Source: Candidatus Zixiibacteriota bacterium (GTDB taxonomy: Bacteria > Zixibacteria > MSB-5A5 > WJJR01). From it: 15,009 nt of DNA. This document shows, piece by piece, positions 3,001 through 12,000 of the stretch. The position numbers are program-made. The stretch is from NCBI GenBank assembly GCA_036170655.1, contig JAVHPP010000061.1:1-15009 (forward strand), in the 5' to 3' direction. Positions within the stretch are counted from its first letter, which is position 1; the number at the start of each line of letters is the position of its first letter.

Positions 3001-6000
3001 GTGTATGGCACACAAGACACCATCGGCCTCGCGCATCAGCTTTGACACGTGTTCCCCGTCTCGCACATCACAGCGCTGCGTGCGTATCCGAGAATCCTGG
3101 TTGTGTTTCGCACCGGGGAGTCGTTCCCGGAAAGTTGCCAACGCGGAGTCGGATGCGTCCGCAACGGTCAGCGTGGTGACGGCCGGGTTTTTCAGCAGGT
3201 CGCAGGCCGCGCCGCGTGCCATCAGTCCCGCGCCCAGTATCAATATCTGCATCTACTCCCTCCCTCCCGCTGCAACTGCGGCGGGACTGCAGCATAACAA
3301 ATCCCCCCGCCCATCTCCAGTACGCTTGTCATTCTGTGTCTGCCTCGGCGGACTCAGAACCCTGTTCGCGGCGGAACAGTGAGAAACCGGATTTGTTTCC
3401 ATAATGGAGTGCGGTGATGTTTACTGAGGCGCCAATAGCGTCCGTGCAATCCCTTGACTACCTTCATGTTCAATCCTTGACAAGAGAACGCAAACTGGTA
3501 TATTCAATGCAGAAAGGCGCTAAGGCGTTCGCGCCGGTTCTTGACCATACACTGAGAGTGCACGCGCCGGATACCTCACTTTCGAGCCGCGTCCCGGATG
3601 TCAACAGTTGGAGAGCAATGATGCGTAAGAATGTGTGCGCTTGGACGACAGTCGTGGTGTCATTCTTGTTCACAGCAAGTACAGCACATGGTCGAAGTCC
3701 GAGTGAGTTGGTTGCGACGTATCGGCCGCTCCCGCCGGTTGTCAAACCGGCTGAGATCCGGATCAGCCCGAATGCTGGCCCGGGAGACATCGTGGTCAAG
3801 TTTCGTCGCGGTCTGCCCGTGGAATCGGCGACCACCCGTTTGGGAGGTCCGGCTGCGTCAAGAGTCAGGCAGGTGTTCCGTGATTATCAGATCCCGGAAC
3901 CCTTACCGTCGATCCCTGGTGATCCGTCAGCGATACGCACGCGTCGCATGGCCGATGAGGATCGTGTGCAAATGAATCTGCCGGATCTCTCGCTTTACTT
4001 CCATGCGTCTGTTATCGATCCGGCGCTGGCAGAGACAGTTATACGCGAGTTGAATGCGCTCGATGAAGTTGAGATTGCCTACTTCCAGCCGCGTCCGGAA
4101 GTGGCTGCTTTCAAGGGCGCAAGCACGGCGCCAAATTTTGAAGGTGGACAAACATACCTTGATCAGGCTCCATCGGGTGTTTCTGCGCGCGCTGCGTGGT
4201 CGCTGCCGGGTGGCGCGGGGAATGGGATTCGCATCTTTGATGTCGAATACGGATGGCAACTGACGCATGAAGATCTCTCGAAGGGAGCCACGGCGGTCGT
4301 CATCAGTGGCAACAGCAGCGACAACGATCACGGAACGGCTGTCATGGGCGAGATGGTCTCCGACCTGAATGGTTTTGGGATGAGCGGCATCGCCCATGAT
4401 GCCCAGATAGGCACATCCTCCGTGTCAACACAGAGTGTCGAGGGCGCGATACAGGCAGCGACGCTGGCGGCGGGCCCCGGGGATCTCATCTTGATCGAAT
4501 TGCACTCCCCCGGTCCTCATTACGATGGCCAGGGCAGAGACGACCAACTGGGTTATGTGGCGATGGAGTACTTCCAAGCGGTCTTCGATGCTATTCTCAA
4601 CGCTTACGCGCACGGCGTGATCGTCTGCGAAGCGGCGGGGAACGGTGCGGAGAATTTTGATGATGCCAGCTTGTACGGTTCTCTGTTCGACACGACCTTT
4701 CGCAATTCACACGCGATCATCTGCGGCGCCGGATATCCCCCGTACCCGGGGAACCCGGACCGCTACAGGCTTGGGTTCTCCAATTATGGGGCACGGGTGA
4801 ATCTTCAGGGATACGGCATTTCGGTCTACTCAACAGGGTACGGCGATCTCTACAATGGCGGTTCCAAGGATTCCTGGTACACCAGTGGTTTCAGCGGGAC
4901 TTCGTCGGCTTCGCCGATCGTCACGGGAAGCGTCGCCTGTCTATCGGGGGTGTTCAAGCAGATGCTGGGGGCAACCATTGATGCAGATTCCGTACGGAGT
5001 CTGCTGGTGGCTACGGGATCGCCGCAGCCGACGCCCAACCAGGCATGGCACATTGGACCGCGCCCCGACCTTTACGCCGCATTGGGATCATTCGTCAGCG
5101 CCACCGACTCGATCTGGTATGGTCATATCGATCTGCCGGTGGGCAGCGAAGTAGCGTTCCCCGTGTCATTGTCCAATGCCAGCCCCGTTCGCGAGATATA
5201 CCTGCCGTTCAAGCTGACTGGTCCGGCCACCATTTTCATCGACTCTCTGACACGTGGGCCACGCACCAGCGGATTTGACATTGTTCAGACGCTCTTCGAT
5301 AATCGTTTCAACGGCGAGATGGGCTATCTCATGAAGGCCGATGCCGTCGGAGATGCACCGTCGTTGTCAGCGGGATCGGGGGTCGTCGCCAATCTGTGGG
5401 TGCGCGCTGCCTATGATGATATTCCTGGACAGGCCAAAGCGGTCGACTCGGCTTGGTTAGGGCAGTCGACTCGTTTGCGTCTCGTATCGTTCTTTGATGA
5501 TAAGTCTCCCGATTACTTCTCCGCGGGATCGGTCACTATCACACCTTCGTTGTGCGATTGCTCCCACCATGGCGACATCAACGGGGACTTGGTGTTCGAT
5601 GTTCTCGATATTGTCGCCATGATTGACATCACTTTCCAGGGAGGCACTCCGGCGCCGACTGATCCTATATGCCCGCACGCGACGCGCGCGGACGACAACT
5701 GCGACGGGATCGTCGATGTCCTCGATGTCGTGTATGCCATTGAGCTGGTTTTCCAGGGTGGGGCGCCGCCTTGCAATCCTTGCGGGTGAATTCAGCGGGG
5801 GGAAGAGAAGAGGCAGAGTGGAATGAGAATGTTGAGCAAGAGATCCGTGGCGAGGGGCGGGATCGGCATGTTCATCCTGTTGCTCTGGTCTGTGGGTATT
5901 GGCACCGTCCTCACGTACGCGGCCGCCGAGTATGATCGCACCCGGGTCGTTGTGAAGCTGGCACCCATGTCCGGACAGGCGCGCCAGGTGACTCCGGGCA

Positions 6001-9000: not shown

Positions 9001-12000
9001 TGCAGTACGCGCATGACCGGGGTGTTGTCCTCGTGGCATCGATGGGAAATTCCGGGCAGAACGAAGTTTTCTACCCCAGCGGGTATCCGTCGACGATTGC
9101 CGTGGGAGCATCGACCGCCAATGACCGGCTCGCGCGGTTCTCCACGTTCAATGATCATATCGCTGTTATCGCCCCCGGTGAGGATATTCTGTCCCTGCGC
9201 GCAGCGGGGACGGACCTGTACGCCGATGGCGGCGAGCCGGTTGTGCATGTTATCGACAATCGTTACTATATCGCCTCCGGCACGTCGATGGCGGCGCCGC
9301 ATGTGACCGGCGCTGCGGCTGTCTTGCTGTCGATTGCGCCGGGACTGACCAACGAAAGGGTGCGACAGATTCTGACATCCACGGCGGACGATATCCTCGA
9401 TCCCTATGGTGACGGCGCGAATCGGCCCGGATATGATCTCTACACGGGATGGGGCCGCATCAATCTCAGCCGCGCCATCGCTGCCCTGCCGGGAATCTTT
9501 GTCACTGTCAGCAATCCGCAGCAAGGGCAGTGGATTGGCGGTACGGTCGCCATTCGGGGCTCAGCGTCGGGGCCGTTGTTCAATGGTTTCGCTGTGAAAA
9601 TTGCCTCTGGCCGCTCTCCAGGTCCGTTTGTATGGACCACGCTCGTGACTTCCAACACACCGGTGACCGACGATGTCCTGGCGAATTGGAATACGGCTGG
9701 CTTGGTGGGTGCGTACACGATTAGAGTTGATGCCGGCACAGATGCGGCCGTTGACGTTCCCGTGAATCTTGTGCAGTCTCCGACCGCGACGTTATTGTCT
9801 CCCTCGAGTGGTGATACCGTGCAGCTCTTGGCCATGGTGAGGGGAACCGCCGCCGCGTCCAGCTTCAGGAAGTACCGGCTCGAAGCCGCCGGTCCGATTC
9901 CGGCGGCGACCGTCCGTCCGATCGGCGACTACACGCGTCCGGTTTGGAATGACACGTTGGGGATATGGAAGCTGGATCAACTTCCGGTGGGTCGCTACTG
10001 GCTGCGCCTGATTGTTGACACCGATACCGGTTCGTTCCGCGATTCGGTAACGGTCACAGTGGCCAGTATGTTTCACGCAGGCTGGCCGGTGATATTGCCG
10101 GCCACGGCTCACTTTGCTGTCGCCACGATAGACTTGGACGGGGACGGCACCGACGAAATCATCTGTCCCACCGCCCGTGGTCTCTGGGTCCTCAAATCGG
10201 ACGGAACAGTTTATCCCGGCTGGCCGCGTGATACACTATCCAACCTCAAGACACCGCCTGCGTTCGCCGATCTCGATGGCGACGGCAGGTACGAGATCGT
10301 CATTGCGACCCCGGATTCGATGCGTGTCTACGCATTCATCGGTGAGGAGTACGCGGGCTGGCCCCAGCCGTTCCAAGGCGGCGACCACTTGTTTGGCGTC
10401 AGTCTGCCCACAATCGGTAATCTCGACGGCGAGGGTGGTCTGGAGATCGTGGCTATTGATAAGACAGGACGGATCAATGCCTGGCACGAAGACGGCAGCA
10501 TCGACCACCCGGCCGGGAAGGACTTCGGTACGATCAAGGTGACGAACACAGCGAGCTATGCGCTGCCCCGTGTCTGCATCGCCGACCTGGATGGCGACGG
10601 CCGGCCCGAACTGGTGGCTGCCGGAGATGACATCCATGTCTTCGATGGCAGGAGCGGGCTGCCCTTTCACGGGATGTCATCCTCGATGATCCGGTCCCAC
10701 TACTCCACGCATGGTCTGGTGGCCGGTGATTTTGATGGTGACGGCCGGCGGGAGGTCGCGTATCTCGGATCGAACGTCGCTCAGGGAAGTTTCTTCCTCG
10801 ATGTGATCCGGCCGGACGGAGTTTCACTGCCGGGATGGCCGAGAACCATTCCCCAGACGGTGGACAAGTATCTTCTGTACTCACTCAGCGCTGGTGACAT
10901 TGATGGAGATCGTCAGCCGGAACTCTTCTTTTCTCCCTATTCTCTGGGGGATGGATTCCTTTATGCCTATCACGCTAACGGCGCCTCGGTGGCATCGGAT
11001 TCCGCCGAGGGACTGTTCGCGGCGTTGCCGGGGTCGGCATCGGCGGTGGCGCTGGTCGATATCGACAACGACAATCAGCCGGAAGTGGTGCTGCGCATCG
11101 GCGAGTTGCTTTTTGGGCCGGACCAGATCTATGCGCTGGAGGCCGACGGGAGCTTTGTGAGTGGCTACCCGATCACGTTCGGCAACGGGTCGTCTTCGGT
11201 GATGTCGGCGCCGGTTGTCGGCGACGTCGATGGCGATGGCGAAGCGGACATGGTGACAGTGCAGTCCACCGGCCGGAGCGTGGCCCTGTGGAATCTGGCG
11301 GTCCCGCTGAGTTTGCGCGGCCGTCCGTGGCCGAAATTCCAAGCGGACATCTGGAACTCCGGTGTCATCCCGTCGCCCAACTACGACATCATTTACCTTG
11401 TGCGGATGATCGACATGCTGTACCGCGGCGGTTCGCTCTTCCCGCCATACGAACCGACAGACCTCAACTGTGACAACCGTATCAACCTGATCGATGTCGT
11501 TATGCTCATCAACTACATCTTCAGCGGGGGCGCGGCGCCATGCGTGCCGTGAGGGGCGCGGTTTCGCGGCATCCCCGCGTTGCACAGGCCGGCACACAAA
11601 CTCAGGGGCGCTTTGGGCGTGACACCGTCATCGCCGCGAGAAACGCACCGAGGTCCGGAGCGCGGTCCAGCCTGTCGACGGCTTCGATCACCCGATCCTG
11701 TGCGGACTTATCCATGGCATCACTGGTCAGCGCGCGGAACTTCTCTTCGATGTCGGCCTCGGTCATCGGATTGTGGGGATTCCCGCGCGGGAAGTCAACC
11801 TGCTGTTCCACCGTGTGTCCGTCACGTGTCGTGATCGCGACCGCGGAGCATTTCTTTGCCGGGAATTGACGTTCAAACTCCGGATCGGCGACCACTTCGA
11901 TCTTGGGGAAAAGTGCGCGCAGCTTCGGCTCGGCGATGCGCGCCGGGGTGAACTGCCGGGGTGTAATCATCCGGTCGGCGATCGCGGCGGCGACGACATA

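Follow-up and report, generated by a model that had tools for sequence, protein, structure and literature searches.

The window analysed here, a stretch of 15,009 nucleotides from a Candidatus Zixiibacteriota genome (G000), raises the question of why three subtilases should each end in a dockerin, and of what these dockerins bind. An earlier note placed them in a surface network in which single cohesins, exported by type IX secretion (T9SS), anchor proteases. Its starting point stands: three S8 ORFs with intact Asp/His/Ser motifs lie on the same strand (3621-5789, 5823-7784 and 7920-11552), and a dockerin-like repeat pair forms the C-terminal end of each. Subtilase 1 probably starts at the ATG at 3618/3621 rather than at 3417, given a GGAG upstream of that ATG and the signal-peptide-like N-terminus that follows it. 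The features of the window are as follows.

3621..5789, + strand: subtilase 1, 722 aa; signal peptide, prodomain, S8 (Peptidase_S8, E 3.6e-12), cohesin, dockerin
5094..5549, + strand: cohesin-fold domain of subtilase 1, residues 492-643 (AlphaFold2 model, Foldseek, VIA)
5550..5786, + strand: Cys-rich dockerin of subtilase 1 (HMM; VIA match to 2ccl_B)
5823..7784, + strand: subtilase 2, 653 aa; signal peptide, prodomain, S8 (E 1.8e-56), Ig/cadherin-like spacer, dockerin
7536..7781, + strand: Cys-rich dockerin of subtilase 2, V-L at positions 10-11 in both repeats (HMM; profile A3)
7920..11552, + strand: subtilase 3, 1210 aa; signal peptide, prodomain, S8, Ig-like spacers, FG-GAP repeats, dockerin (Pfam)
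11322..11549, + strand: dockerin of subtilase 3, calcium loop 1 degenerate and loop 2 intact (HMM E 1.3e-19, in-sample)
14030..14407, - strand: dockerin-ended tail of an internally deleted fourth protease-like gene (Dockerin_1 28.8 bits, over cut-off)

The spacer of subtilase 2 matches Cadherin_5 and Big_9 in Pfam, both under cut-off, while subtilase 3 matches S8 (E 3.1e-52) and FG-GAP_3 (E 1.6e-30) and has one full-length orthologue per genome in 5/5 family genomes. The tail of the fourth gene was called subtilase-like by inspection; the stretch for its signal peptide is in another frame, at 14367-14612. Among sequencing runs looked up for 3600-11550, none listed contains RNA data.

Identity of the dockerin and cohesin modules

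The dockerins follow a pattern of two calcium-loop/helix repeats with Asp or Asn at positions 1, 3, 5, 9 and 12, from which only loop 1 of subtilase 3 departs among the three. Pfam Dockerin_1 does not match subtilase 1 and reaches 11.9 and 16 bits on subtilases 2 and 3, respectively, against a cut-off of 22.9. The modelled dockerin of subtilase 1 superimposes on the dockerin 2ccl_B (VIA Z 9.3, rmsd 1.7, 61 aligned), and profile A3, led by the subtilase 2 dockerin, matches solved dockerins with a best E of 1e-6. The earlier note had itself doubted whether its cohesin-like domains were more than generic beta-sandwiches. For the tail domains of subtilase 1, an AlphaFold2 model (mean pLDDT 89.8) found 4uyp as its best Foldseek match (E 1.4e-10); the cohesin aligned with 5nrk_A at VIA Z 16.9 (rmsd 2.5, 139 aligned), with cohesins at all of ranks 1-20 and the first other fold at Z 10.1. 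The cohesin of a second protein, the C140 anchor described below, gave a similar picture (VIA Z 14.5, rmsd 2.5, 135 aligned; ranks 1-19 all cohesins, first other fold Z 10.0). Profile A5, drawn from other genomes but with rows partly picked using G000-derived HMMs, matches PDB cohesins at E 6e-13. The cohesin fold at Z 16.9 and the profile match to solved cohesins argue against generic sandwiches, a reading we reject for the two modelled domains, as cohesins rank above all other folds in both.

The subtilase 1 cohesin alone has no Pfam match, and Pfam Cohesin is matched at E<=1 by 2/30 members of its family and by 13/30 anchor orthologues (best 7.9e-7). In a leave-one-out trial on ten hand-picked cohesin domains, two were recovered at E<1e-3, two weakly, and six were missed; in-genome cohesin HMMs are thus weak, and profiles from other genomes were used instead. 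An HMM seeded on four Pfam matches gave no extension. Searches of the PDB with the single sequence of the C88 adaptor and with profiles A2 and A4 returned weak or no matches, and the adaptor's eight protein-database matches carry no informative names.

Cohesins, dockerins and their cargo across the genome

With no reversed-sequence decoy scoring better than 0.087, iterated HMM searches recovered 39 dockerin ORFs at E<=1e-3 where 38 had been counted; Dockerin_1 alone gives 14 genome matches, 13 of them over the gathering cut-off. The nearly invariable C-terminal placement holds, with 35/39 dockerins ending within 15 residues of the stop. The description 'Cys-stapled' fits the 26/39 with at least four Cys, in which we infer disulfides, but not the three with at most one. 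Nine of 38 dockerin proteins scanned carry a peptidase family over the Pfam cut-off (S8 in five, and M1, M14, M23 and M36), as the note had counted; a 64-aa fragment, C66, was left out of the scan and C84 was scanned in part. Its statement that glycoside hydrolases and CBMs are lacking also holds, none appearing among the best five matches listed per protein for 38/39 dockerin ORFs of an assembly that may be incomplete; one dockerin protein, C125, has a BNR_2 sialidase-like propeller. To judge from these domains, roughly one-quarter of the cargo would be peptidases and the remainder propellers, Ig-repeat and other non-catalytic proteins. A 'protein-degrading counterpart of the cellulosome' is therefore unsupported, since 29/38 scanned proteins have no peptidase family. 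Nor does the genome appear to hold a large orthogonal set of pairs: dockerin positions 10-11 are V/I-L in 56/69 repeats, and such near-uniform recognition positions make a few distinct cohesin-dockerin classes more likely.

The number of cohesin ORFs, 16, agrees with the earlier count, whereas that of domains rises from 17 to 18 at E<=0.0025 (best decoy 0.79), with further ones seen by eye. Contrary to the claim that one protein has two cohesins and the rest one, C41 has three cohesin-like domains, and C91, C121 and C43 apparently have two each (the second by inspection or at E 0.26). The broader statement, that cohesins are mostly single and scaffoldin arrays missing, is borne out: neither G000 nor four other genomes of 1-2 contigs each (G020, G033, G044 and G088) show a long tandem scaffoldin, and none of their ORFs has more than three cohesin matches. 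At least seven ORFs of G000 carry a cohesin followed by a dockerin, three of these cohesins being recognised by inspection; others have a signal peptide only, without a T9SS tail (CTD) (C93, C120 and C70:2601), or are lipoproteins (C24 and C154).

Of T9SS, the translocon, sortase and shuttle family are present, with SprA at 609.7 bits (cut-off 200), PorU at 627.7 (420) and the PorV family at 252.3 (90). Cohesins with a CTD do exist, as proposed, although lipoprotein and signal-only cohesins show that they are not the sole anchor type. The principal one is the following.

G000 C140:3014-4093: signal-cohesin-CTD anchor, ~280 residues, conserved across the phylum

Its cohesin spans C140:3305-3787 and its tail is a type A CTD (TIGR04183 41.4 bits, cut-off 23); the protein has matches in 213/251 phylum genomes, mostly one strong match each. 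Clear orthologues number 0/9 in family f8 and 1/13 in f15; we rejected the idea that these families lack CTD cohesins, as three inspected f8/f15 genomes carry other signal-cohesin-CTD proteins. In f15, cohesin-only genes adjoin a dockerin gene at five loci. The strand-3 aspartate D42 is invariant in the anchor family (30/30), its role being presumably that established in C. thermocellum; the equivalent position is 30% conserved in the subtilase 1 cohesin family, a set that mixes paralogues. When the C140 cohesin (A4) was modelled together with the subtilase 2 dockerin (A3), the complex scored 0.20 and 0.18, short of the 0.32 mark, which points neither way on binding. GldM and GldN had no match in five genomes each, with control searches equally silent, and the T9SS may for this reason be atypical.

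Exchange of the terminal dockerin with the T9SS tail

What is new here is that a T9SS tail and a terminal dockerin replace each other on the same enzymes. By profile search the terminal dockerin occurs in 244/251 phylum genomes and in 0/7 genomes of families f14 and f17, all seven of which keep SprA. There the CTD ends 31/31 complete S8 ORFs sampled and 13/13 complete M1 ORFs, and the f14 orthologue of subtilase 1 (L223) ends in a T9SS tail, with neither cohesin nor dockerin detected. The M1 aminopeptidase set as a whole comprises 21 dockerin, 17 CTD, 5 other and 2 cut forms; its tree, built by a quick method, midpoint-rooted and with long branches at L253 and L255, needs three changes and places one dockerin form as sister to a CTD form in f15 (SH-aLRT 97). 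Both main cohesin queries also found no match in the same seven genomes, and a broad cohesin profile found none in two tested f14/f17 genomes versus 20-25 in four other genomes. The stronger statement, that f14 and f17 are without any cohesin or dockerin, was rejected, as 3/5 f14 genomes have Pfam Cohesin matches in lipoproteins and in CTD proteins with atypical dockerin-like repeats. The co-absence spans two families, possibly through one or two events. Within G000 the CTD accompanies a dockerin in only 2/39 dockerin ORFs, both with internal dockerins, and it is found on 3/9 S8-like ORFs, so that the two routes coexist.

Since dockerins occur where the proteases of relatives carry the T9SS tag, a few CTD-bearing cohesins probably hold many kinds of cargo. 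We consider it rather probable, from sequence and models, that the phylum has a hub-and-spoke cohesin-dockerin display layered on T9SS, with the CTD supplied in trans. Cargo would cross the inner membrane by Sec, fold with calcium and disulfides, and dock on a CTD-bearing cohesin, which PorU would process and anchor, holding the cargo at the surface; the dockerin of cargo that has no CTD of its own would thereby replace it. Proteins with both a cohesin and a dockerin, such as subtilase 1, might extend the hub. The outer-membrane step is the least certain, and could proceed through SprA on the cohesin or by separate export and capture outside. The former, with the terminal dockerin acting in trans as a sorting signal for T9SS and the cohesin-CTD protein binding folded cargo in the periplasm, ferrying it through SprA and then being anchored by PorU, is a tentative proposal that we regard as possible but not probable. 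If true, one small adaptor gene would let dozens of proteins lose their own CTD, and cellulosome parts would serve piggy-back T9SS export across most of a phylum.

The earlier note's chain-forming network is possible on sequence. In its explicit form, cohesin-dockerin proteins (subtilase 1, the C33 subtilase, the C88 pair, C70, C5 and C62) would bind head to tail, giving protease chains from a CTD anchor. The cohesin-then-dockerin ORFs of G000, a subtilase 1 cohesin family matched in 177/251 genomes, and the loss of both modules at once in the f14 orthologue all speak for this, as does the linker between the cohesin and dockerin of subtilase 1, which is only a few residues long and so makes binding within one chain unlikely. 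However, one uniform dockerin type would also permit self-polymerisation before export, and the aspartate invariant in the anchor is poorly conserved in the subtilase 1 family; we think such chains unlikely. Markedly less probable is a dockerin that works by itself, either as a tag read by an unknown export factor or as a cap stabilised by calcium and disulfides, with cohesins serving only internal or atypical dockerins. A sorting signal would be expected to sit at the terminus and to alternate with the CTD, as the dockerin does, and these genomes have a second secretin with pilin-like genes. Against it, f14 and f17, the two families without the terminal dockerin, also lack the main cohesin families, and the exposed helix positions, hydrophobic and conserved in both repeats, resemble a partner-binding face. 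Moreover, the searches revealed no canonical T2SS by which cargo might travel, though one may exist: GspG exceeded the TIGR01710 cut-off in 0/14 genomes, and weak Pfam T2SSG matches numbered two in genomes with dockerin and two in those without. A role as sorting tag, raised earlier as a doubt about binding, is compatible with it, and because of the swap data the dockerin may well be both tag and cohesin binder. Least probable of all is docking at the periplasmic or inner face, where cargo would stay on lipoprotein or free cohesins and CTD cohesins would be incidental. Such cohesins are present, and no signal for export across the outer membrane is recognisable in the cargo; but homologues of the cargo are CTD-tagged, and hence exported, in families without dockerin, and of all the cohesins it is the one with a CTD that is best conserved.

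Relation to known systems

The claim of a new architecture finds no support, two similar ones having been proposed in silico. According to Andrei et al. 2019 (PMC6461901), the planctosome of Nemodlikiaceae comprises a single-cohesin anchor, a dockerin-plus-cohesin adaptor and dockerin peptidases, with polypeptide breakdown as its proposed function. G000 has the same three components, likewise in a diderm. The planctosome anchor, however, is a lamin-tail/P-domain protein, whereas here it is a T9SS CTD protein, and lamin-tail/P-domain families are not among the matches listed for the cohesin proteins scanned; there are also ~40 cargo genes here, mostly non-peptidase, and a tag that exchanges with the CTD. 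According to Williams et al. 2021 (PMC8542988), the cellulosome-like complex of Ca. Stygibacter (Cloacimonadota) has a dockerin-ended S8 peptidase and a CTD cohesin protein for surface attachment, the CTD being attributed to T9SS via a cited review. Both features recur here, but the Stygibacter complex has GH18/GH57 cargo and a single scaffoldin of 3,755 aa that carries CBMs as well as cohesins in tandem. Here no protein exceeds three cohesin matches, the matches listed include neither CBM nor GH families, and a minimal cohesin-CTD protein is conserved throughout the phylum.

Firmicutes single-cohesin systems involve Gram-positive wall anchoring and carbohydrate-active cargo. OlpA/OlpC of C. 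thermocellum (3ul4, 4dh2), R. flavefaciens ScaC (5lxv) and CohG (4n2o) have the same fold, and their single cohesins, too, belong to anchors, to adaptors or to free (autonomous) proteins; identity is only 10-16%, and the dockerins here are Cys-rich. With its three cohesin-like domains, C41 counts as a scaffoldin in the cellulosomal sense of a protein with at least two cohesins. With T9SS of type A CTD substrates the system shares translocon, shuttle family, sortase and CTD, all over curated cut-offs; it differs in that GldM and GldN were not found (controls silent) and that most proteases end in a dockerin instead of a CTD. Our literature searches found no paper linking dockerin with Zixibacteria, none on dockerin and cohesin in Latescibacteria, none on type IX secretion in Zixibacteria, none relevant on T9SS piggyback of CTD-less proteins and, among the titles listed, none on cohesins in Zixibacteria.

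Cohesin-dockerin pairing would have a role far from cellulose, as a surface-display code of general use in most of an uncultured diderm phylum. That dockerin and CTD exchange on the same enzymes bears on whether T9SS exports bound passengers, which would matter for translocon cargo selection and for displaying proteins on the surface of Bacteroidota hosts. In engineering terms, the yield is probably a few new pairs per lineage, not dozens per genome, because the recognition residues vary between the families of the phylum.

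Cohesin and dockerin repertoire

Three S8 subtilase ORFs with intact catalytic motifs lie on one strand in the window, accompanied by two possibly fragmentary genes and three flanking genes with no apparent link to the cohesin–dockerin system.

67-2052 (+), DUF3857/transglutaminase-like protein, flanking
2095-3252 (−), saccharopine dehydrogenase family, flanking
3621-5789 (+), subtilase 1, a 150-residue beta domain and then a dockerin in its C-terminal part
5823-7784 (+), subtilase 2, an Ig-like spacer and then a dockerin
7920-11552 (+), subtilase 3, FG-GAP repeats and then a dockerin with a degenerate first loop
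11602-13089 (−), MmgE/PrpD family, flanking
13391-13852 (+), ORF with little besides a C-terminal domain of T9SS/FlgD type (31 bits to FlgD_ig; signal peptide not evident), perhaps a remnant
14030-14612 (−), signal-peptide start and protease-like dockerin-bearing end in different frames without a catalytic domain between, explained by deletion within the gene or by a join in the assembly

In three of five family genomes the subtilase 1 and subtilase 3 orthologues share a contig, within a few kb of each other; in the other two they are apart.

With the model of the subtilase 1 domain, cohesins fill ranks 1–20 (Z 16.9 to 12.0; next fold, Z 10.1), Foldseek being concordant, and with that of the C140:3014 domain they fill ranks 1–19 (Z 14.5). 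For these two modelled domains, the doubt raised in the earlier note that they might be generic beta-sandwiches is thus not borne out. A 42-row profile without source-genome rows matched PDB cohesins at E 6e-13 and gave 15 matches in the source genome; a similar local profile gave 18 cohesin domains in 16 ORFs. Cohesins are joined there to a T9SS C-terminal domain (CTD) on contigs C140, C152, C115 and C88 (C88:1955), with C85 and C45 weaker or assigned by eye; to a dockerin in the window and on C33, C70 and C5, with C62 and the C88 pair assigned by eye; and to both, as cohesin–dockerin–cohesin–CTD, on C41, C43 and C121. Lipoprotein cohesins occur on C24 and C154, and a signal peptide with a cohesin alone on C93 and C120. 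Four genomes of one or two contigs each have 20–25 cohesin matches, at most three per ORF. The proposed "scaffoldin-free" character holds for long arrays and not beyond them.

A dockerin HMM, seeded on two window tails and iterated to convergence on the source genome, identified 39 ORFs with E ≤ 1e-3, against 0.087 for the top-scoring decoy. The dockerin is terminal in 35 of these; a CTD is present as well in only two, whose dockerins are internal. Solved dockerins were matched by the family profile, and the predicted model of the subtilase 1 tail resembles dockerin 2ccl_B (Z 9.3). Over 69 repeats (73 matches minus 4 out of register; two proteins lacked a pattern match), positions 10–11 are V/I-L in 56, while Asp occupies position 18 in 52 and Phe position 21 in 63; we take these positions to set cohesin specificity. 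The plain reading of the repeat sequences is one dominant class. On specificity, a review (PMC12484212) goes only as far as placing species-specific residues on the symmetrical dockerin surface. Two minor classes, both on CTD proteins, comprise the internal type of the cohesin–dockerin–cohesin-like–CTD tail (C41, C43, C121, C140:6083 and part of C12) and the atypical repeats of C11 and C88:1955; adding both yields ~45 ORFs with some dockerin. Because both congeners are larger (3.3 and 3.9 Mb) than this 2.6-Mb assembly of 184 contigs, the counts may be low. Three very small secreted proteins resemble little beyond a dockerin and might act as caps or compete for sites on cohesins.

C85:5314-5805, mini-dockerin protein
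C72:14858-15493, mini-dockerin protein
C63:38587-38982, mini-dockerin protein

Distribution and exchange of C-terminal tails

The cohesin–dockerin system is real and phylum-wide; the terminal dockerin was matched in 244 of 251 phylum genomes, against 213 for the C140 cohesin and 177 for that of subtilase 1. The seven genomes without a match to the terminal dockerin are those of families f14 and f17, which keep SprA and in which neither cohesin query, nor the A4 profile for the C140 cohesin, found a match. Counter to a joint absence of cohesin and dockerin, Pfam Cohesin matches occur in three of five f14 genomes, either as lipoprotein cohesins encoded next after a gene whose product has a CTD and C11-type repeats or as C88:1955-like proteins.

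C154:3069-7372 and C11:2-1897 (source genome), L274 and L278 (f14 loci), lipoprotein cohesin adjacent to a gene for a CTD protein whose dockerin repeats are atypical

The source genome may hold the same pair, because the gene after the C154 lipoprotein cohesin has a cut end whose sequence overlaps the start of the C11 ORF; lipoprotein cohesin and atypical-repeat CTD protein form a candidate second pair of reversed polarity. The C140 orthologue was not found in families f8 and f15, and three inspected genomes of these families encode 276–285-residue signal–cohesin–CTD proteins of their own type.

In f14 and f17, the S8 sample came from 99 Pfam S8 matches and covered the 50 loci surrounding them, where 18 ORFs were cut by a locus edge. 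Of the S8 ORFs that were complete, 31 were distinct, and every one has a CTD at its end rather than a dockerin; they include a subtilase 1 orthologue (E 1.4e-67), in which cohesin and dockerin were not detected, and 1100-residue S8/FG-GAP proteins resembling subtilase 3. Among nine S8-like ORFs of the source genome, five are dockerin-ended, three CTD-ended and one neither. Homologues of the dockerin-ended M1 aminopeptidase on C56 comprise 21 dockerin-ended, 17 CTD-ended, 5 other and 2 cut sequences, the best matches being biased to dockerin forms by a query that included part of the dockerin; the CTD-ended homologues fall in f14/f17 (13), f8 (3) and f15 (1). A quick tree of 40 M1 catalytic regions needs three tail changes, one between close f15 sequences. 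Judged from the M1 and S8 tail comparisons, dockerin and CTD are alternatives for one slot. Since in T9SS the CTD confers export and surface anchoring, the dockerin would most simply give the same outcome via a CTD-bearing partner.

Secretion machinery

SprA (translocon), PorU (sortase) and a PorV-family protein exceed NCBIfam cut-offs in the source genome, all on one contig, where a cohesin–dockerin subtilase gene is divergent from porU.

C33 (L071-L073), sprA, porU and genes for a 941-aa protein (PorV match split) and for an M6-like protein with a CTD; two dockerin genes on the same contig

A CTD/FlgD-like HMM matched 38 ORFs, one of which is probably a true FlgD. GldM and GldN, each searched in five genomes, had no match among the source genome and the related G020, G125, G084, G089, G047, G112 and G005, and control searches were equally silent; SprA, PorU and PorV were present wherever searched among these eight, in which the T9SS motor is possibly divergent or missing. 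None of three secretins in the source genome, one being PilQ, reached the GspD cut-off, and GspG exceeded the TIGR01710 cut-off in none of 14 genomes, all of which have pilin-like clusters.

Cargo and proposed modes of display

A peptidase family was found in 9 of 38 scanned dockerin ORFs; the others are propellers, proteins with Ig, cadherin or Cys-rich repeats, one cupredoxin, small adaptors or proteins with no assigned family.

C84:10028-12640, dockerin-ended protein with dozens of short Cys-Thr-rich repeats, spanning an assembly gap

Such a set looks like a general-purpose docking code, with proteases as its largest enzyme group.

Beyond the domains, folds, architectures, machinery genes and distributions established by the analysis, cargo would be exported by Sec, its dockerins would form disulfides and bind cohesins, and PorU would anchor the CTD-bearing cohesin, placing the complex at the surface. 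We consider it probable that many dockerin proteins dock in this way on a few CTD-bearing cohesins, as hub-and-spoke display on T9SS; piggy-back export, as a component of hub-and-spoke display, is a tentative suggestion. Cohesins on proteases may extend chains; chains as the main form, built from proteins that combine cohesin and dockerin, such as those of the window, C33, C70 and C5, seem less likely. The system resembles a second layer of addressing added to T9SS more than it does a cellulosome for proteases.

Related in silico proposals comprise a single-cohesin anchor with a dockerin–cohesin adaptor and dockerin peptidases (Andrei et al. 2019, PMC6461901) and, for S8 and C25 peptidases with dockerins, attachment to a protein that combines tandem cohesins with a CTD (Williams et al. 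2021, PMC8542988). By the PDB titles among the structural matches, single-cohesin anchors and adaptors already have solved structures. Titles listed from an open-access library included none on a cohesin–dockerin system in Zixibacteria or on dockerin/CTD tail exchange.

The conserved cohesin–CTD gene (L079-L108) often lies near an OPT-like transporter gene and, also often, near a small metal-sulfur cluster assembly-like gene (both labelled by inspection).
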